From: Dehalococcoidia bacterium
Lineage (GTDB): Bacteria; Chloroflexota; Dehalococcoidia; Lucifugimonadales; UBA3495
Direction: 5' to 3'
Assembly (NCBI GenBank): GCA_030740155.1
Contig: JASLXV010000041.1
Span: 1-64,000, forward strand
Length of the DNA stretch: 64,000 bases
In this document: positions 1,890 through 64,000 of the stretch, piece by piece
How positions within the stretch are numbered: position 1 is the stretch's first letter
How the letters are laid out: each line of letters starts with the position of its first letter
Program-made: the position numbers and the translations under genes
Notes under the pieces: model-generated
The model's input: only the letters and a program-made list of their open reading frames with translations
The model's database searches: none
Told to the model about the DNA's origin: nothing

Positions 1890-3620
1890 ATGGCACGGCA
1901 GGCCAAGGGCAAACCACGCCCCGGCGGCAAAAGAGAAGGCTCGGCCCTTGACCCGGCGGCCAAACGGCAGTGGGAGCAAACGGTACTCAAGGCGGAGTTG
2001 AAGGGGAAGCCGGAGAGGCAAGAGGAGTTCCGCACCCTGGGCGGGGAGTACCCGGTGGAGCGGCTGTACGCCCCGGCCGGCGCCGAGCACGCGGATTATC
2101 TGCGGGACGTCGGTTTTCCGGGTCAGTACCCCTTCACCCGGGGCCGGTATGCCGCGGGCTACCGCAACTTCGAGTGGCCCCACGACTTCTATACCGGCTA
2201 TGGCGGCGGCGAGGACGCCAACCAGCGGTACCGTCAACTGGTCGCCCACGGCGCAACCTCGCTGACCATGGCCATGGACCTGCCAACCCAGCTAGGATAC
2301 GACCCGGACCACCCCATGGCGGCCGGGGAACCGGGAAGGGTGGGGGTGGCCGTCGGCTCCCTCCGGGACGCAGAGGACCTGCTGGAGGGCGTTCCGCTGG
2401 ACCGGGTGGGCATCAGCACCGTGGGTAACTGCATCGGACCCTACGTCTTGGCCCTGTTCCGGTCGGTCGGCCAGGTGAAGGGCTACGACCCGCGGCGGAT
2501 GCGGGTGCGTCTTCAGAACGATCCGATAAAGGAGTACACGGGGCGAGGCACCTACATCTTCCCCATCCGCATGGCCCTCGAGTTGTCCATGGACGTGGTG
2601 GAGTACGTCATCGAGAACCTGCCCGGCTGGGTCCCTCAGTACGTGTGCAGCACCCAGGTACGATGGGGCGGTGTGGGTCCCGCCGAGGAGACGGCTTTTG
2701 GCATCGCCAACTTTCTCACCTACGTGGAGGCGGGCCTGGCGCGTGGGCTGAAGCTGGAACAGTTGGTGCCCACCATGGACCTTCACATGTCCACCGAAGG
2801 GGACATCTTCGAAGAGGTAGCCAAGTTCCGCGCCACCAGGCGGCTCTTTGCCAAGCTCATCAACGAGCGGTACAACGTTGACGACCCGGGAATCGCCGGG
2901 CTGCGTCTTTCCACCTACACCTCTGGACACCGTTTGACGGCCCAGCAGCCCCTCAACAATGTGGTTCGCAGCACCCTGCACGTGCTGGCGGCCATGCTGG
3001 GCGGCGTGGAGCATATCTGGGCGCCCGCCTACGACGAAGCTCTGGCCCTGCCGACCTACGAGTCCACCCGGGTTGCCCAGCTCACCAAGCAAATCATCCA
3101 CCACGAAAGCGGTGTCACCAACACGGTGGACCCCCTGGCCGGCTCCTACTTCATGGAGGACCTGACGGCCAAGCTGGAGGAGGAGGCTCGCCTCATCCTC
3201 GACCAGGTTGACGGCATGGGCGGGGCCATCCCGGCCATCGAGGCAGGGTTCTACGACCGGAAAATGGTGGAGGGGACGGTGCGGTACCAGCGGCAGGTGG
3301 ACAGTGGGGAACGGGTTGTCATCGGAGTCAACAAGTTCCAGGAGCAGGAGGAGCAGCCCGTGACCATCTTCCAGGTCCATCCGGAGACGGAGCAGCGCCT
3401 GGTCCAGCGCGTTGTGCGGCTCCGCCAGGAGCGGGACGGCGCCCGGGCGAAGGAGACTCTGGCGCGGTTAGAGGACGCTTGCCAGCGGAAGGTGGAGAAC
3501 CCCCATTACAACACCGTTCCCGCCATGCTGGAAGCGGTCCAGGCGTCCTGCACCGTCGGCGAGATCTTCGGCGTGATGCGGGATGCCTTCGGCGAGCACG
3601 TTCATTCGGGAACCTTCTAG
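1890..3620 (+). CDS. B12-dependent acyl-CoA mutase family large subunit, highly divergent
   Basis: PGQYPFTRG, DLPTQLGYDPD, QND..KEY..RGTYIFP, EEVAKFRA, DEALALPT, DPLAGSY, IGVNKF; GGAG before ATG 1890. Confidence 0.92.
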   Translation: MARQAKGKPRPGGKREGSALDPAAKRQWEQTVLKAELKGKPERQEEFRTLGGEYPVERLYAPAGAEHADYLRDVGFPGQYPFTRGRYAAGYRNFEWPHDFYTGYGGGEDANQRYRQLVAHGATSLTMAMDLPTQLGYDPDHPMAAGEPGRVGVAVGSLRDAEDLLEGVPLDRVGISTVGNCIGPYVLALFRSVGQVKGYDPRRMRVRLQNDPIKEYTGRGTYIFPIRMALELSMDVVEYVIENLPGWVPQYVCSTQVRWGGVGPAEETAFGIANFLTYVEAGLARGLKLEQLVPTMDLHMSTEGDIFEEVAKFRATRRLFAKLINERYNVDDPGIAGLRLSTYTSGHRLTAQQPLNNVVRSTLHVLAAMLGGVEHIWAPAYDEALALPTYESTRVAQLTKQIIHHESGVTNTVDPLAGSYFMEDLTAKLEEEARLILDQVDGMGGAIPAIEAGFYDRKMVEGTVRYQRQVDSGERVVIGVNKFQEQEEQPVTIFQVHPETEQRLVQRVVRLRQERDGARAKETLARLEDACQRKVENPHYNTVPAMLEAVQASCTVGEIFGVMRDAFGEHVHSGTF

Positions 3621-3638
3621 CAGGAGGTCTCAGGGACC

Positions 3639-4251: not shown

Positions 4252-5427
4252 GTGGACTTCAAGTTCAGCCCGGAAGACGACACCTTTCGCAACGACCTCC
4301 GAGGTTTCCTCGAAACGGAGCTTCCTCCCGATTGGGAGGGCCAAGGCCGGCGGCCCGAGGTTCAAAATTGGGACTTTGCCAGGCAAGTGCGCAAGAAGCT
4401 GGCGGCCAGGGGCTGGTTGACCATGCACTGGCCGGAGGAGTACGGCGGTCAAAACGTTTCGCACGTGCGCACGGCCATCTTCAACGAGGAAATGACCTAC
4501 CTGCGGGCTCCGGGGCGGGACCATGCCGGGGTCCGGATGCTGGCCCCCACCTTGATGATTCACGGCTCCGAGGAGCAGAAGCAGACCCACCTCCCTCCGG
4601 TCGCCCGAGGTGAGGTCCAGTGGTGCCAGGGGTACAGCGAGCCGGAGACGGGGTCGGACCTCGGCTCTCTCAGCATCCGCGCCGTCCGGGATGGCGACGA
4701 CTTCGTCATCAACGGCAGGAAAATATGGACCAGCCTGGCCCACCTGGCGGATTGGATAATGCTGTTGACCCGATCCGACCCCGACGCCCCCAAGCACCGG
4801 GGTATCAGCTTCATCCTGGTGGATATGAAGACCCCGGGAATCGAGGTGCGGCCCATCGACAACATCGCCGGGGGCCGGGAGTTCAACCAGGTAATCTTCG
4901 ATAACGTCCGGGTCCCCCGCAAGAACGTGGTCGGGGAGGAGGACCGGGGTTGGTATGTGGCCGTGACCCTGCTGGACTTCGAGCGGTCCGGCATCGACTT
5001 TTCGGCCGCGGCCCGCCGCTTGCTGGACGACGTGCGGGGGTACGCCGCCGAGACCACCCGCCAGGGCCGGGCCTTGATCGACACCCCCTGGGTGCGCAGC
5101 CTGTTGGCCGACCGGTACATCGAATGCGAAGCGGCCCGCCTGATGGCCTATCACGTGGCCTACATGCAGAGTCAGGGGCTGGTGCCCAACAAAGAGGCAT
5201 CCACGAGCAAGGTATTCGGGACCGAGACACTCCACCGGGCGACGGTGGCGGGGATGCAGGTTCTGGGCCCTTATGGAGCGCTGGGCCGTGGGGAAAAATG
5301 GGCGCCCCTCCGGGGCCGGGTTCAGGAAAACTGGATGATCAGCTTTTCCAACACGATCGCCGGGGGGACCTCCGAGATCCAGCGGAACATCATCGCCAGC
5401 AGAGGCCTGGGCCTTCCCCGAGGCTGA
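4252..5427 (+). CDS. Acyl-CoA dehydrogenase (FadE26/FadE34-like type)
   Basis: WCQGYSEPETGSDL, INGRKIWTS, LDFER, TIAGGTSEIQRNII; GGAG before GTG 4252. Confidence 0.95.
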   Translation: MDFKFSPEDDTFRNDLRGFLETELPPDWEGQGRRPEVQNWDFARQVRKKLAARGWLTMHWPEEYGGQNVSHVRTAIFNEEMTYLRAPGRDHAGVRMLAPTLMIHGSEEQKQTHLPPVARGEVQWCQGYSEPETGSDLGSLSIRAVRDGDDFVINGRKIWTSLAHLADWIMLLTRSDPDAPKHRGISFILVDMKTPGIEVRPIDNIAGGREFNQVIFDNVRVPRKNVVGEEDRGWYVAVTLLDFERSGIDFSAAARRLLDDVRGYAAETTRQGRALIDTPWVRSLLADRYIECEAARLMAYHVAYMQSQGLVPNKEASTSKVFGTETLHRATVAGMQVLGPYGALGRGEKWAPLRGRVQENWMISFSNTIAGGTSEIQRNIIASRGLGLPRG

Positions 5428-5535
5428 GGTCCGGGCGGGCCGCTGGCCGCGGAGCGGGAAAGGACCGCGCCCAAAGGCCCGTCGTCATGCGACTATTGAG
5501 TAGTCGAACCCTATTTATCGAACAGGAGAGTCAGC

Positions 5536-6711
5536 GTGGATTTCAAGTTCAGCACGGAAGACGACACCTTTCGCCGGGAACTCCGAGAGTTTGTACAAGC
5601 GGAGCTTCCATCCGATTGGGAGGGCCCCGGCCGGTGGCCCGATGATTACGATTGGGACCTTACCCGGCGGATGCGCAAGAAGATGGCGGCCAGGGGCTGG
5701 CTGACCATGCACTGGCCGGAGTCGTTTGGCGGCCAGGACGCGTCGCCGGTGCGCAATGCCATTCTCAACGAGGAAATGACCTACATGCGGGCTCCGGGCC
5801 GGGACATATTCGGGGTCCGGATGCTGGCTCCCACGTTGATGATCAACGGCACCGAAGAGCAGCGGCAGGCCCATCTTCCCGGGGTTGCCAAGGGTGAGGT
5901 CAATTGGTGCCAGGGGTTCAGCGAGCCGGAATCTGGGTCGGACCTGGCTTCCCTCAGCACCCGCGCCATCCGGGATGGCGACGACTTCGTCATCAACGGC
6001 AGCAAGATTTGGACCACACTGGCCCACCGGGCGGATTGGATGATGCTGTTGACCCGCACCGAACCCGACGCCCCAAAACACCGGGGCATCAGCTTTATTC
6101 TGGTGGATATGAAAACCCCGGGCATCGAGGTGCGGCCCATCACCAACATTACCGGGACTCAGGAATTCAACCAGGTAATCTTCGATAACGTCCGGGTGCC
6201 CCGCCGGAACGTGGTCGGAGAGGAGGACCGGGGCTGGTACGTGGCCGTGACTCTGTTGGACTTCGAACGGTCCGCCGTCGATTACTCGGCCTGGGCCCAC
6301 CGGTTGTTGGACGATGTTCGGGGGTACGCCGTGGAGACCACCCGCAACGGCCGGCCCCTGATCGGGACCCCCTGGGTGCGGAACCTGCTGGCCAACGGGT
6401 TCATCGAAACCGAGGTGGCCCGCCTGATGGCCTACAACGTGGCCTACATGCAGGGCAAGGGACTGGTGCCCAACCGGGAGGCGTCCATGAGCAAGCTGTT
6501 CGGGAGCGAGACCCTCCACCGGGCGACAGTGGCCGGGATGGAGATCCTGGGCCTGTACGGAACACTGGGTCGCGGCGAGAAGTGGGCGCCCCTCCGGGGC
6601 CGGATCCAGGAAAACTGGCTGATGAGCTTCTCCCACACGGTCGGCGGCGGGACCTCCGAAGTCCAGCGAAACATCATCGCCAGCCGGGGTCTGGGCCTTC
6701 CCCGAGGTTGA
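5536..6711 (+). CDS. Acyl-CoA dehydrogenase, tandem paralog of 4252-5427
   Basis: Same motifs, same length, long identical stretches with the upstream copy. Confidence 0.95.
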   Translation: MDFKFSTEDDTFRRELREFVQAELPSDWEGPGRWPDDYDWDLTRRMRKKMAARGWLTMHWPESFGGQDASPVRNAILNEEMTYMRAPGRDIFGVRMLAPTLMINGTEEQRQAHLPGVAKGEVNWCQGFSEPESGSDLASLSTRAIRDGDDFVINGSKIWTTLAHRADWMMLLTRTEPDAPKHRGISFILVDMKTPGIEVRPITNITGTQEFNQVIFDNVRVPRRNVVGEEDRGWYVAVTLLDFERSAVDYSAWAHRLLDDVRGYAVETTRNGRPLIGTPWVRNLLANGFIETEVARLMAYNVAYMQGKGLVPNREASMSKLFGSETLHRATVAGMEILGLYGTLGRGEKWAPLRGRIQENWLMSFSHTVGGGTSEVQRNIIASRGLGLPRG

Positions 6712-6810: not shown

Positions 6811-7932
6811 CTAGGTCATCGCGGAGAAGCCCTGCAACCTTTGCAACACCTCAAGAGCGCCCAAGACCAGGTCATCCATTATCCTGGCGGCGGGTTTAGA
6901 TTCCTTGAGCAGACCGCCGATCTGCCCCGCCGGGTTGTTTATCAAATCCTGGCGTCCCGCTTGGTGCGCCGCGTCCACCAGGTCTTCCATCAGGGCCCCC
7001 TGCAAGGGCATGGGCAACGGGTCCAGGTCCGAGTTCTCCCACGCATCCATGACCACGTTCTTGTATTGGCGGACAGGCTTCCCGGTGGAGGACCGGCTGG
7101 TCGGGAAGTCCTCGGAGGCTCCCCGGAGGATGTCCTCCTTATGGAGGTCTGGAATCTCGCACTCCTCGGCTACCAGGAAGGCGGTGCCGACCCAAGCTCC
7201 CACGGCGCCCAGGGCCAGGGCGGCGGCAACTCCTCGCCCGTCTCCGATGCCTCCCGCCGCGATTACCGGGGTGGGCGCGACGACATCTACGACCTGGGGG
7301 ATCAAAGGGAAGTTCGCGATTCTGCCGGTATGCCCACCGGCCTCGAATCCCTGGGCCACGACGATGTCCACGCCGGCCTCCATCTGCCGCCGGGCATGGC
7401 GCACCGAGCCCGCCATGCCGAAGACGGTGATGCCTTGCTCGTGGGCCATCGGGACCATCCAAGATGGGTCGCCCAGAGCCGCCGCGAACACCGGGACCTT
7501 CTCCTCCAGCACCACCTCCACCGCCTCCTGAACGTTCTTGCGGGTAACCAGCCTCTTCCTCTCCGCATAGGCGTCCGGAAGGTTGAATTCTCGCATCAAG
7601 CTCTGGACGAACGCCACGTGTTTGGGGTATTCACGCCGGAGCTGTTCCCGGACGGCCGAGCGGGTGTCTCCGGTTTCGGCCAGGCTGACGGGCAGGAGCA
7701 AGTCCACCCCGAAGGGCTTGTCCGTCAGTAGCCGGACCTCCTGAATGCAAGCGCGGAGATCCGCGAGGTCCAGTCCGGTACCCCCAATGACACCCAGGCC
7801 GCCGGCGTTGGAGACCGCCGCGACGAGGCTGGGCGGCGTGACCTGGCCCCTCCCGCCCATGCCTGCCAAGCAGATGGGGTACTCGATCCCAAGACGGTCG
7901 CAGAGTGGGGTCCGCAAAGCCGGTCTTTCCAT
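6811..7932 (-). CDS. Nitronate monooxygenase / FabK-like FMN oxidoreductase
   Basis: LGIEYPICLAGMG, AVSNAGGLGVIG, AQGFEAGGHTG, PVIAAGGIGDGRG, VGTAF. Confidence 0.93.
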   Translation of the reverse strand: MERPALRTPLCDRLGIEYPICLAGMGGRGQVTPPSLVAAVSNAGGLGVIGGTGLDLADLRACIQEVRLLTDKPFGVDLLLPVSLAETGDTRSAVREQLRREYPKHVAFVQSLMREFNLPDAYAERKRLVTRKNVQEAVEVVLEEKVPVFAAALGDPSWMVPMAHEQGITVFGMAGSVRHARRQMEAGVDIVVAQGFEAGGHTGRIANFPLIPQVVDVVAPTPVIAAGGIGDGRGVAAALALGAVGAWVGTAFLVAEECEIPDLHKEDILRGASEDFPTSRSSTGKPVRQYKNVVMDAWENSDLDPLPMPLQGALMEDLVDAAHQAGRQDLINNPAGQIGGLLKESKPAARIMDDLVLGALEVLQRLQGFSAMT

Positions 7933-8069
7933 CTTGATGCCTCCTTGCCCAGTCCCGGTTTGTCATTTTGATGCGAGGTGTTTCCCGGATGCCAATCCGC
8001 CGGTTGGGCCGTGGCAGACACCTCCGGCTCAGACCCCGAAGCCGGAAGCCGGGCGCCGGACGAGCCCGC

Positions 8070-8138
8070 GGGGGTCTGGGTTTTCCCCGAGGCTGAGCCC
8101 CGGCCGGTGCATTGGTCGTGGAGCAATAAGGGACCGCG
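8070..8138 (+). pseudogene. Remnant of an acyl-CoA dehydrogenase 3' end and downstream flank
   Basis: Reads GLGFPRG-stop versus GLGLPRG-stop in both ACADs; following bases resemble 5428-5469. Confidence 0.65.
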
Positions 8139-8149
8139 GAGAGCCTTGC

Positions 8150-9277
8150 CTAGGTCACCGCAACGAAGCCCCGCAACCGTTGCAGCACCTCCACGGCGCC
8201 CTGGACCAGCTCATCCATTATCCTGGCGGCGGGCTTGGATTCCTTGAGCATCCCACCGATCTGTCCCGCCGGGCTGTTTATCAGATCGTGGCGTCCCGCT
8301 TGTTCCGCCGCGTCCACCAGGTCTTCCATCAGGGCGCCCTGCAATGGCATGGGCAACGGTTCCAGGTCCGAGTTCTCCCACGCATCCATGACCACGTTCC
8401 TGAATTGCCGGACCGTCTTCCCGGTGTAGGTTCGGCTGATGGCGAAGTCTTCGGTGACTCCCTGGAGGATGTCCTCCTTGTGGCGGTCCGGTATCTGGCA
8501 CTCCTCGGCCACCAGGAAGGCGGAGCCAACCCAAGCTCCCACGGCGCCCAGGGCCAGGGCGGCGGCGACTCCTCGCCCGTCTCCGATGCCCCCCGCCGCG
8601 ATCACCGGCATGGGCGCGACGATGTCCACGACCTGGGGAATCAAGGGGAAGTTCGCGATTCTGCCGGTATGGCCGCCGGCCTCGTGTCCCTGGGCCACGA
8701 CGATGTCCACTCCGGCCTCCATCTGTCGCCGGGCATGGCGCACCGAGCCCGCCATGCCGAAGACGGTGATGCCTTGCTCGCGGGCCAGAGGGACCACCCA
8801 GGACGGGTCGCCCAGGGCCGCCGCGAACACCGGTACCTTCTCCTCCAGCACCACCTCCACCAGCTCCTTGACGTTCTTGCGGGTGACAAGCCGCTTCCTC
8901 TCGGTATAGGCGTCCGGAAGGTTGAATTCCCGCATCAAGCTCTGGACGAACGCCACGTGTTTGGGGTATTCACGCCGGAGTTGTTCACGGACGGCCGAGC
9001 GGGTGTCCGCCGTTTCGGCCAGGCTGACGGGCAGGAGCAAATCCACCCCGAAGGGCCTATCCGTCAGGGACCGGACCTCCTGAATGCAAGCGCGGAGATG
9101 CTCGGGGCTGAGTCCCGAACCCCCGATGACGCCCAGACCGCCGGCATTGGAGACCGCCGACACGAGCTTGGGCGGTGTGGCTCTGCCCCGGCTTCCCATG
9201 CCTGCCAAGCAGATGGGGTACTCGATCCCCAGACGGTCGCAGAGCGGGGTACGCAAGGCCTGCCTTTCCATATCCAT
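8150..9277 (-). CDS. Nitronate monooxygenase-family protein, tandem paralog of 6811-7932
   Basis: Same motifs, near-identical protein; AAGGAGG RBS. Confidence 0.93.
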   Translation of the reverse strand: MDMERQALRTPLCDRLGIEYPICLAGMGSRGRATPPKLVSAVSNAGGLGVIGGSGLSPEHLRACIQEVRSLTDRPFGVDLLLPVSLAETADTRSAVREQLRREYPKHVAFVQSLMREFNLPDAYTERKRLVTRKNVKELVEVVLEEKVPVFAAALGDPSWVVPLAREQGITVFGMAGSVRHARRQMEAGVDIVVAQGHEAGGHTGRIANFPLIPQVVDIVAPMPVIAAGGIGDGRGVAAALALGAVGAWVGSAFLVAEECQIPDRHKEDILQGVTEDFAISRTYTGKTVRQFRNVVMDAWENSDLEPLPMPLQGALMEDLVDAAEQAGRHDLINSPAGQIGGMLKESKPAARIMDELVQGAVEVLQRLRGFVAVT

Positions 9278-12137: not shown

Positions 12138-12524
12138 ATGTTCAAGGGAATAGACCACATGGTCATCGCGGTCAATGACCTGGAGCAGGCGGTCAAACAC
12201 TACGAGTCGAAGCTGGGTCTCAAGGCCAACGAAGGAGGCGGAGAGCACCCGGAACTGGGTTTGCGAAATGCCTATCTTCCCCTGGGTGATGGGGGGGCGT
12301 TCATTGAGTTGGCGCAACCCCTGGGACCCGAAACTCCTCTGGGACGCACCATCGCGCGCAAAGGCGAGGGTATCCATCTGCTGGCGATGGCGGTGGACGA
12401 CCTCCAAAAGGCGGTGGCCCAATTGAAGGAGAACGGCGCCCAGATAATCGAGGCGGGCTCCATGGTCTTTATTCACCCCAGGGACGCCCATGGCATCATG
12501 TTCCAGCTTGTGGAGCGCAAATAA
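12138..12524 (+). CDS. VOC-family protein, methylmalonyl-CoA epimerase-like
   Basis: IDHMVIAV, IELAQP, GEGIHLLA, FIHP..AHGIMFQLVE; AGGAGG RBS. Confidence 0.85.
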   Translation: MFKGIDHMVIAVNDLEQAVKHYESKLGLKANEGGGEHPELGLRNAYLPLGDGGAFIELAQPLGPETPLGRTIARKGEGIHLLAMAVDDLQKAVAQLKENGAQIIEAGSMVFIHPRDAHGIMFQLVERK

Positions 12525-62919: not shown

Positions 62920-63333
62920 CTAGGGTAACCCCTCGGGGTCCTCCGGCGCCCGATGGGCGTAGACGAATTCCGCGATGTCCGGGATGCGGGACCCGGGGCC
63001 GAAAACGCCGAGCACCCCTAGCTCCTCCAGGGCCGGGACGGCTTCTTTGAGGACGACGCCCCCCACGATGATTGGGATGTGGGAGATGCCCCGTTCCTTC
63101 ATGGCCGACCGAAGGGCGGCCACCAGGGCTACCGGGTCCCGGTCGGTGATCCGGTAGCCGACGAAGTCGACATCCTCTTGCAACGCGGCGTCGGCGACCT
63201 CCGCCGGCTCGGCATGGCCCAGGGAAATGACCTCCATGCCGGCGTCTTGAAGCCCCCGGGCCACCACGTGGTAGCCGGCCGTGTGGCCGGGGGTATCGCT
63301 GCTGAGTAGAAAGCGCGTTTGTTCTTGTTTCAT
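62920..63333 (-). CDS. Cobalamin-binding small subunit with atypical motif
   Basis: L.DAGMEVI..G, AALQEDVD, VGGV, FGPGS; PGHTAG in place of DGHxxG. Confidence 0.88.
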   Translation of the reverse strand: MKQEQTRFLLSSDTPGHTAGYHVVARGLQDAGMEVISLGHAEPAEVADAALQEDVDFVGYRITDRDPVALVAALRSAMKERGISHIPIIVGGVVLKEAVPALEELGVLGVFGPGSRIPDIAEFVYAHRAPEDPEGLP

Positions 63334-63339
63334 ATCTCT

Positions 63340-64000
63340 CTACCCCCGGAGGTCCGCGCCGTAGGCCCGGTAGATGAATCCGCCTCGCTGCAGTAGCTCG
63401 GCGGGGTCCCCGGCTTCAGACAGGGCGCCGACGATCTCGCCAATGCTGAGGTAGGACCGGACGGCCTCGAAGGTGGGCTCCACGATGTTCTCTTTGGCCA
63501 GGTAAGCCTTTACCAGTCGCCGCTTCGCCTCTTGCGCTCGGGCCTGGTCCCGGCGCTGCTTGACCTGCTCCAGCCGCCGGACCTGCTCGTGGCGCCAGGC
63601 GGGGTCCGCCTTCAGCACCTCCACCTGCGGCTCCGGATAACCCGAGTCGGCATCCGTCCGGAAGCGGTTGATCCCCACCACAACCTGCCGGCCGGAGTCG
63701 ATGGCGTTCTGACGCCGGTAGGCCGCTTCGTTGGACTGTCCCGCCATGTAATCGAGGGCTTGAGGGAGGTCCATCTCCTCCAGGGTTTCCAGGATGCGGG
63801 CGGCACTCTGCTCAAGCTCGCCGGTAATGGCCTCCACGCAGTAGGAACCACCCAAGGGGTCCACCACGGAGGTGACGCCCGTTTCGCAGGCGATGATCTG
63901 CTGGGTGCGCATCGACAGCGTCTGGCTGAACTGGGTTGGGGTGGCCAACGCCTCATCGAAGGCGTTGATCGACATGGACTGGGCGCCGCCGAGCGCGGCG
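63340..64000 (-). CDS. Second acyl-CoA mutase family large subunit, C-terminal part (starts beyond window)
   Basis: AALGGAQSMSINAFDEALATPT, RTQQII, DPLGGSY, IDSG..VVVGIN.F. Confidence 0.92.
   Translation of the reverse strand, partial: AALGGAQSMSINAFDEALATPTQFSQTLSMRTQQIIACETGVTSVVDPLGGSYCVEAITGELEQSAARILETLEEMDLPQALDYMAGQSNEAAYRRQNAIDSGRQVVVGINRFRTDADSGYPEPQVEVLKADPAWRHEQVRRLEQVKQRRDQARAQEAKRRLVKAYLAKENIVEPTFEAVRSYLSIGEIVGALSEAGDPAELLQRGGFIYRAYGADLRG

Follow-up and report, generated by a model that had tools for sequence, protein, structure and literature searches.

To our knowledge only a handful of carbon-skeleton rearrangements depend on adenosylcobalamin (AdoCbl), and we know of no characterized mutase of the methylmalonyl-coenzyme A mutase (MCM) fold whose substrate is anything but a coenzyme A (CoA) thioester. 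In these enzymes closure of the barrel on the substrate ties threading of the CoA ester to radical generation, according to section 6.2 of PMC6257451. Here we describe a gene pair encoding a split mutase of this fold, with a large substrate-binding subunit (P0001) and a small B12-binding subunit (P0002), found in a 64,000-nucleotide stretch of DNA (the window; positions 1 to 64,000 of contig JASLXV010000041.1) from a Dehalococcoidia bacterium (GCA_030740155.1). The pair is very probably an active AdoCbl enzyme with an undescribed substrate. We hypothesize, more tentatively, that it rearranges a free 4-oxo acid to a 2-methyl-3-oxo acid without CoA.

Both subunits are recognizable members of the family. 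P0001 scores above the cut-off of TIGR00641 (acyl-CoA mutase N-terminal domain; 483.5 bits versus 303.8) and matches PF01642 with 501.5 bits, while P0002 exceeds the TIGR00640 cut-off (140.5 bits versus 57.45). No NCBIfam equivalog cut-off was passed (MCM 397 versus 876, IcmF 192.7 versus 1500, beta subunit TIGR00642 130.5 versus 617), the MCM and IcmF models being built for longer fused chains. The top PDB sequence match of P0001 is HcmA (4R3U_A, 404 bits) and the top Foldseek structure match is again 4R3U (TM score 0.84); the ESM Atlas returned generic mutase clusters only. The AlphaFold2 model of P0001 (pLDDT 90.8) aligns with MCM and with 2-hydroxyisobutyryl-CoA mutase (HCM) at Z 44-47 and a root-mean-square deviation (rmsd) of about 2 Å over 500+ residues (VIA-align).

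A model of the P0001-P0002 complex scored 0.67 against 0.00 for the best control, with at least 92 % of contacts agreeing between runs and a partner pLDDT of at least 83; the mark applied is reached by 116 of 157 solved pairs and by 2 of 215 mismatched pairs. The model supports the predicted binding of the two subunits, but such pairs are textbook cases, and resemblance to solved structures may account for the pass. CoA was present in the model but unscored, and the complex score carries no information on CoA binding. The modelled interface includes the DGHEMG motif of P0002 and large-subunit residues 259-261 (E247W).

A first-pass annotation, made from the sequence alone, had compared P0001 by eye with the Propionibacterium shermanii enzyme and described an intact scaffold with a rewired substrate channel. 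We aligned P0001 to 1REQ_A with HMMER (chain index +1 gives the usual numbering) and found every substitution it had named: R87D, Y243T, H244Q, E247W, R283T, S285D, F287H, H328S and Q330Y, as well as the replacement of QSLHTN by EHIWAP. The equivalents of Y89, Q197 and R207 are kept as it had said, and so are D369 and E370, the latter having a role in Co-C homolysis. Further changes are T77A, M78G, R82F, T85P, S114T, T166V, T195R, I200P, N236V, I238Q, S239Y, S241C and N366P. Among the 14 positions that we take to line the CoA tunnel of MCM (T85, R87, S114, S164, T166, T195, N236, S239, R283, S285, R326, H328, Q361 and S362), P0001 keeps 2. The claim that basic CoA contacts are lost holds in part: R87D and R283T are both present, but R326 is kept and R283T is private to P0001, position 283 being K or R in 49 of 56 homologues, and part of the basic set therefore remains. 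The partner subunit has an intact DxHxxG motif, reading DGHEMG instead of the canonical DGHDRG.

To estimate how far this residue set is conserved, we took the top 120 matches of a protein search, of which 95 share the new motifs; dereplication at <80 % identity gave 56 homologues, drawn from the search with no selection on motifs. Q197, G206, R207, D369, E370 and a His at the F287 position are found in all 56, whereas position 287 is F in 21 of 23 canonical enzymes. Nearly as constant are P200 (55/56), Y89 (53/55), Q238 (52/56), C241 (51/56) and W247 (45/55), and 53 of 545 columns of the clade alignment are invariant. The partner subunits, which were not dereplicated, read DGHE[TSAM]G in 56 of 56 cases. 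In 52 of the 56 homologues another residue stands in the place of His244, and the four that retain it all lack Cys241, which suggests that Cys241 and His287 stand in for His244. The copies evolve under purifying selection, with dN/dS of 0.069/0.394 against the copy of a same-genus relative (G001) and 0.225/1.431 against a more distant clade member (L025), about 0.17. Conservation of the new residues among homologues had been set beforehand as a test of decay, and on its outcome the clade is not a product of decay.

The tunnel positions behave differently. All 65 scorable clade sequences keep 1 to 3 of the 14 tunnel residues, and 19 of 23 sequences in the canonical set, which includes a divergent Sphingobium plasmid protein (L128) with 3/14, keep all 14. 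The R87 position is occupied by D (18), G (14), S (7) or K (4), the T195 position by R (30) or W (6), and the N236 position by E (17), V (17) or I (7). Other positions have settled on a new character: an aromatic residue at S239 (54/56) and at Q330 (51/56), E or D at Q361 (53/56) and R or K at 326 (52/56). Summed over 12 tunnel positions, side-chain volume is 1616 Å3 in the clade (n = 66) versus 1332 Å3 in canonical enzymes (n = 22), and 1646 Å3 in P0001; the added volume would be of the order of the pantetheine arm. Judged from sequence, the known variants differ in the acyl pocket at 89/207 and retain the tunnel, and the clade reverses this, with a fixed carboxylate pair and a rebuilt tunnel. 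The first-pass suggestion of a very different acyl group or a non-CoA substrate is thereby strengthened, and the non-CoA option would fit better because HCM, the presumed pivalyl-CoA mutase (PCM; Xaut_5043) and the presumed ethylmalonyl-CoA mutase (ECM; MeaA) keep 14, 11 and 10 of the 14 residues, P0001 keeps 2, and Y89/R207 is fixed. We assume that MeaA is ECM and Xaut_5043 is PCM, their records reading 'protein meaA' and 'methylmalonyl-CoA mutase, large subunit', and likewise assume the HCM label of the reference sequence and the residue roles.

Phylogeny places the clade apart from HCM, ECM and PCM and probably from MCM. All 22 clade rows among the 52 of an IQ-TREE tree cluster on a single branch (SH-aLRT 100), separate from ScpA and the S. 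meliloti enzyme, and approximately unbiased (AU) tests reject joining it to HCM (p 0.003), MeaA/ECM (p 0.003) or PCM (p 0.0006). The expectation that it would not group with a characterized mutase is thus borne out for HCM, ECM and PCM, and membership of HCM, ECM, PCM or isobutyryl-CoA mutase (ICM) was rejected on residue signatures, with the AU tests adding to this for the first three. The clade is a real, conserved and uncharacterized branch of MCM-fold B12 mutases, probably outside every characterized acyl-CoA mutase type. Its distribution is sparse and patchy: it occurs in 1 of 40 relatives and in 2 of 401 genomes of the class, host included. A species-level genome scan gave 24 distinct clade loci and metagenomes 60; among 39 pattern loci, L024 and L048 had no mutase, L047 was a duplicate and 12 sister-clade loci were left out of the clade counts. 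The sources are Chloroflexota, Deltaproteobacteria/Thermodesulfobacteriota, Rokubacteria, and Alpha- and Gammaproteobacteria, and every named source is a metagenome-assembled genome (MAG). Named members are annotated as methylmalonyl-CoA mutase, an annotation that hides the clade. We found no account of the clade or of a free 4-oxo-acid mutase in the literature searched, which left subscription papers and the key acyl-CoA mutase surveys mostly outside, and the accessible part of PMC5395668 names the SAR202 MCM only for propionyl-CoA use.

Gene neighbourhoods offer a second line of evidence on the substrate. Of 84 clade loci, 47 span at least 6 kb and 27 remain at <85 % mutase identity, the window being represented by the identical locus L066. 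Neighbours within 6 kb were labelled by BLAST to Pfam-annotated representatives. The 27 loci hold a small subunit in 20 cases, a thiolase in 17, DUF35 in 14 and a CoA ligase in 14, with a ligase or family III transferase in 19 and a thiolase plus an activation gene in 13. An acyl-CoA dehydrogenase, enoyl-CoA hydratase or MaoC gene is present in only four of the 27 and in none of the 17 thiolase loci, and no 3-hydroxyacyl-CoA dehydrogenase was seen among the neighbour proteins scanned with Pfam (86 + 32 + 44 proteins, a subset of all neighbours). Five neighbour thiolases that were tested match SCP2, BbsB and archaeal DUF35-type models below cut-off, and NCBIfam gave no specificity for the neighbouring ligases, transferases or thiolases. 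The mutase of locus L025 is 68 % identical to P0001 with near-identical active-site segments; it adjoins DUF35, a thiolase and two PrpD genes on the opposite strand.

A downstream retro-aldolase was also considered. Ltp2 and Sal, steroid aldolases of the thiolase fold, carry YDHF and YDCY motifs according to the accessible part of PMC12329534. This candidate was rejected because the nucleophile Cys is present in every one of the 35 linked thiolases; the HD-type motif occurs in 32 of them and YDTM in one.

Since ligase, mutase and true thiolase occur together with no dehydrogenase or hydratase, the mutase product would already be a 3-oxo compound, and an MCM-type 1,2-shift of a 4-oxo acyl compound would give the 2-methyl-3-oxo acyl. 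We therefore hypothesize, short of an even chance, that the clade is a CoA-independent branch of the MCM family, a 4-oxo-acid ketone acyl-shift mutase, serving an undescribed catabolic route in uncultured Chloroflexota, Deltaproteobacteria, Rokubacteria and marine Proteobacteria. A 4-oxo acid corresponds to succinyl-CoA with S-CoA exchanged for a carbon group, which would explain the fixed carboxylate site, the lost tunnel and the dispensable His244. The ketone analogue methylmalonyl-carba(dethia)-CoA is a substrate of MCM, and in model radicals ketone acyl groups migrate faster than thioesters.

In the proposed reaction, R-CO-CH2-CH2-COO- would become R-CO-CH(CH3)-COO-. The carboxylate would sit on R207/Y89 as in MCM, with the ketone in place of the thioester carbonyl and the R group in the mouth of the former pantetheine tunnel, the rest of which would be filled by larger side chains. 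The adenosyl radical would take a hydrogen from the carbon beside the carboxylate, the ketone acyl group would undergo a 1,2-shift via a cyclopropyloxy radical and the hydrogen would be returned, His287 and Cys241 replacing the function of His244. A CoA ligase or family III transferase would trap the product, and thiolase plus DUF35 would cleave the CoA-activated form to propionyl-CoA and R-CO-CoA; SCP2/BbsB-type thiolases accept 2-branched 3-oxoacyl-CoAs. The equilibrium probably favours the linear acid and would be pulled by an ATP-driven ligase. R may differ between subclades, the simplest candidate being levulinate (R = CH3). Genes that might supply 4-oxo acids occur at some of the 27 loci (aldehyde:ferredoxin oxidoreductase 3, amidohydrolase-2 5, old-yellow-enzyme-type reductase 1, hydantoinase/oxoprolinase 1) and are only suggestive of such a supply. 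Importers of the TAXI-TRAP, Tct and Liv types recur at clade loci.

Several points weigh against the free-acid proposal. Here and in G001 the pair precedes two acyl-CoA dehydrogenases, and no thiolase or ligase adjoins the window copy; three Cys-type thiolases, each with DUF35, lie on other host contigs. A short-chain dehydrogenase/reductase in two of the 17 thiolase loci (L038, L100) might oxidize a 3-hydroxy product. Gene order cannot place the ligase before or after the mutase, and a 4-oxoacyl-CoA substrate would give the same final products. The mostly basic positions 283 and 326 could bind phosphate. Moreover, the 14 positions are presumed to line the tunnel, on the basis of what is known of CoA-bound MCM structures and of their invariance in canonical enzymes, not of coordinates.

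One alternative explanation, rather unlikely in our estimate though the best of the competitors, is that the enzyme is still an acyl-CoA mutase that holds CoA in the rebuilt tunnel or partly outside it and acts on a new acyl group; the ligase or transferase next door might, for instance, first supply a 4-oxoacyl-CoA or a 4-hydroxyacyl-CoA. The 19 loci with such an activation gene, the basic residues at 283 and 326, the tunnel drift tolerated in ECM and PCM, and the use of CoA esters by all characterized relatives are in its favour. It fits less well with only 1 to 3 tunnel residues kept at positions that vary within the clade though CoA would be a constant ligand, or with aromatics at 239 and 330, and a carboxylate common to all substrates, rather than a variable acyl end, is what the fixed Y89/R207 pair suggests.

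The dehydrogenases beside the window copy, and those near the mutases of L042 and L057, are accommodated if the free acid carries a migrating aryl or alkenyl group (2-arylpropionate to 3-arylpropionate, or a 2-methyleneglutarate-type shift) and the product then undergoes CoA ligation and ordinary beta-oxidation. This would account for the same residue pattern, including the loss of His244, and 2-methyleneglutarate mutase is a precedent for such a radical shift. We consider it improbable, as a 3-oxoacyl-CoA could be reached only through an acyl-CoA dehydrogenase and a hydratase, both absent from the 17 thiolase loci, and L025, with its near-identical active-site segments, adjoins thiolase and DUF35.

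It is also conceivable, with still lower probability, that Cys241 and His287 form a dyad in which a covalent substrate thioester replaces CoA or a thiyl radical acts as a relay. The two residues lie on neighbouring barrel strands at the acyl end and are found in 51 and 56 of the 56 homologues, and the sequences that keep His244 lack the Cys; yet Cys241 is also present in the MeaA/ECM reference and in a host paralogue on contig C60, both with more of the tunnel, five clade members do without it, and the thiolase link would go unexplained. That the gene is decaying, or that its product is a partner without catalytic function in the manner of the MutA beta subunit, is very improbable: Y243, H244, E247 and N366 are lost and the genome has four other large-subunit paralogues, but the dN/dS values, the invariant Q197/R207/E370, the TIGR00642 score and a B12 subunit of its own in 20 of 27 loci, kept separate even at loci that hold a second mutase, speak against it. 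An assembly error or frameshift artefact was rejected because the exact protein occurs on 20 contigs of the collection; its GC content is in line with the flanks.

Coordinates of the mutase pair, its motifs and other features in the window
Feature	Position	Strand	Remark
Large (TIM-barrel, substrate-binding) subunit of MCM-fold AdoCbl mutase, P0001	1890-3620	+	576 aa
Codons 99-101 of P0001, D99 (R87 position) to Y101 (Y89)	2184-2192	+	D99, lost CoA contact; Y101, kept
QNDP...GR motif, Q209 (Q197) to R219 (R207)	2514-2546	+	clade-specific P212 and G218
Strand 5 and loop: Q250, Y251, C253 (S241), T255 (Y243), Q256 (H244), W259 (E247)	2637-2666	+	
H299 at the F287 position	2784-2786	+	new invariant active-site histidine
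D382-E383 (D369/E370)	3033-3038	+	kept
Small B12-binding (Rossmann) subunit, P0002	3639-4067	+	142 aa
DGHEMG cobalt-ligand motif of P0002	3705-3722	+	canonical DGHDRG
Two 391-aa acyl-CoA dehydrogenases	4252-6711	+	tandem duplication; single copy in G001
Two FabK/nitronate-monooxygenase-like genes	6811-9277	-	tandem duplication; single copy in G001
Methylmalonyl-CoA epimerase-like VOC protein	12138-12524	+	below cut-off, 79 versus 115 bits
Small subunit of second divergent mutase	~62920-63339	-	TPGHTAG instead of LDGHDRG
Second divergent mutase, same contig	63340-64000, continuing to G000:C41:65091	-	

P0001 has an ATG start behind a ribosome-binding-like purine run (GGGAG, 1879-1883), and P0002 starts 18 nt past the large-subunit stop with a similar run (AGGAGGT, 3622-3628) in between. 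The GC content of the mutase gene matches its flanks. No Rfam match was obtained anywhere in the window, thus no cobalamin riboswitch was found there, and scans for promoters and terminators gave results close to chance level. The large gene is covered in three of four runs, and the small gene in one of four, by RNA contigs of at least 99 % identity at a depth of 2-8, which is not proof of transcription. An upstream DinB/mycothiol-transferase-like gene (1059-1562) was rejected as a member of the system, being absent at this place in G001 (L059). A double family III CoA-transferase adjoins the VOC protein, which is 8 kb away from the mutase.

The host genome is found in seawater metagenomes and encodes MeaB, on contig C38, and two adenosyltransferase families. 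It has five large-subunit paralogues including P0001. The copy on contig C93 is a fully canonical Y/R mutase and that on C54 an F/Q paralogue. The second divergent mutase at the end of the window has V at position 89 and R243/N244, with the CoA tunnel largely kept. The fourth paralogue (G000:C60:787-2529; L122) has Y/Q/R and H244 together with C241, N287, G328, G330 and A366, and adjoins two aldehyde:ferredoxin oxidoreductase-like genes, with no small subunit seen nearby. A thiolase on host contig C69 stands beside a CoA ligase and has the shortest path to the L025 thiolase, though no branch support backs this placement.

Other clade loci show recurrent arrangements. Nine (L021, L060, L078, L079, L082, L088, L106, L108 and L110) share an operon of amidohydrolase-2, CoA ligase, mutase pair, DUF35, thiolase and a UGSC-family (seleno)protein, often with an aldehyde:ferredoxin oxidoreductase and a Liv-type importer; their thiolases have GDP instead of GHP. 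This operon places the UGSC family in a pathway context. At L032, L043, L075, L100 and L113 the clade shares its locus with a second small subunit (DGH[DT]VG), and at all of these except L075 also with a second divergent mutase type (C.NH.NAA at 241-247), which suggests two successive or parallel rearrangements. In a Chloroflexota MAG (L046:4673-8715) two tandem clade members share one small subunit and MeaB, and several more divergent members lie on its other contigs.

Loss of the tunnel extends beyond the clade. We searched 1.84 billion representatives with a clade profile and took the best 150 matches, of which 149 were new and aligned and 131 well covered; in this sample, enriched through ranking by likeness to the clade, 36 of 131 have no more than 4 of the 14 tunnel residues, and Y/Q/R is kept in 19 of those 36. 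From these 19 and from sister clades, the combination of a lost tunnel and a preserved carboxylate site is recurrent in this part of the family. Sister clades adjoin family III transferases, classical thiolases, hydratases or HMG-CoA-lyase-like genes. One of them (L022, L029, L052; CGSQ.RW, H287, Y/Q/R kept) adjoins HMG-CoA-lyase-like and family III CoA-transferase genes, and its L022 lies about 16 kb from L025 in the same large catabolic island, with hydantoinases, a PrpD pair, and ADC-family and 2-oxoacid dehydrogenase genes. Another (L027, L030, L031, L036, L037, L049, L051, L054, L058) has lost the CoA tunnel and gained an Arg at S164 while keeping Y89, Q197, R207, Y243, H244, E247 and F287, the whole MCM catalytic set; its neighbours include classical thiolases, family III transferases, hydratases and AtuA. 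The Sphingobium protein L128 (plasmid AP027325.1) is placed inside the divergent radiation; it belongs to a 'methylmalonyl-CoA mutase' pair of a cultured organism, lacks Y/Q/R and most tunnel residues, and makes an accessible test case.

If the free-acid proposal is correct, the pair would represent a new natural B12 reaction in which the barrel is triggered without CoA, a radical isomerase for unactivated keto acids, and an oxygen-independent route for 4-oxo acids such as levulinate. The clade would then be one of a wider radiation, that of the 19 representatives above. Even with a CoA-ester substrate the architecture of the active site suggests a reaction not yet described, which is directly testable through the five-gene operons; L021, L044 and L056 hold such complete sets of ligase, mutase pair, DUF35 and thiolase.

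Among known systems, the CoA-free class I enzymes glutamate mutase and 2-methyleneglutarate mutase resemble the proposal in rearranging the skeleton of a free acid. By descent glutamate mutase stands well outside the family (Z 20.6, 15 % identity to P0001), and no 2-methyleneglutarate mutase NCBIfam model was among the P0001 matches at E 0.001. On the thiolase side, the neighbouring enzymes match the BbsB model of benzoylsuccinyl-CoA thiolase BbsAB and keep its nucleophile Cys, but at 217-292 bits they fall far below the cut-off of 750, and the scanned neighbours included no bbs or bss genes.

MeaA/ECM, Xaut_5043/PCM and ICM/IcmF belong to the same family and presumably share the radical 1,2-acyl shift. 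MeaA has Y/Q/R, C241 and P366 in common with P0001; it and Xaut_5043 keep H244, where P0001 has Q. Ethylmalonyl-CoA mutase is a fused single chain whereas P0001 and P0002 are split genes, pivalyl-CoA mutase lacks the Y89/R207 pair that P0001 keeps, and ICM presumably has the signature F/Q at 89/207 in place of Y/R.

HcmAB from Aquincola tertiaricarbonis (4R3U) is likewise split into a large and a small subunit, and the HCM operon on the M. petroleiphilum plasmid contains a CoA ligase, as clade loci do. HcmA is about 36 % identical to P0001. HCM has I/Q at 89/207, 14/14 tunnel residues and Y243/H244/E247, where P0001 has Y/R, 2/14 and T/Q/W. MutB of P. shermanii (1REQ/4REQ) has the same fold, 4REQ_A aligning over 510 residues at Z 44.5 and an rmsd of 2.0 Å, and like E. 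coli ScpA it has in common with the pair Y89, Q197, R207, D369, E370 and the base-off/His-on DxHxxG motif. At about 32 % identity to MCM, P0001 replaces the CoA tunnel, and Y243, H244, E247, F287, Q330 and N366 of MCM become T, Q, W, H, Y and P. Unlike MCM, the clade has thiolase, DUF35 and ligase genes as neighbours, and the host carries a separate canonical mutase on contig C93.

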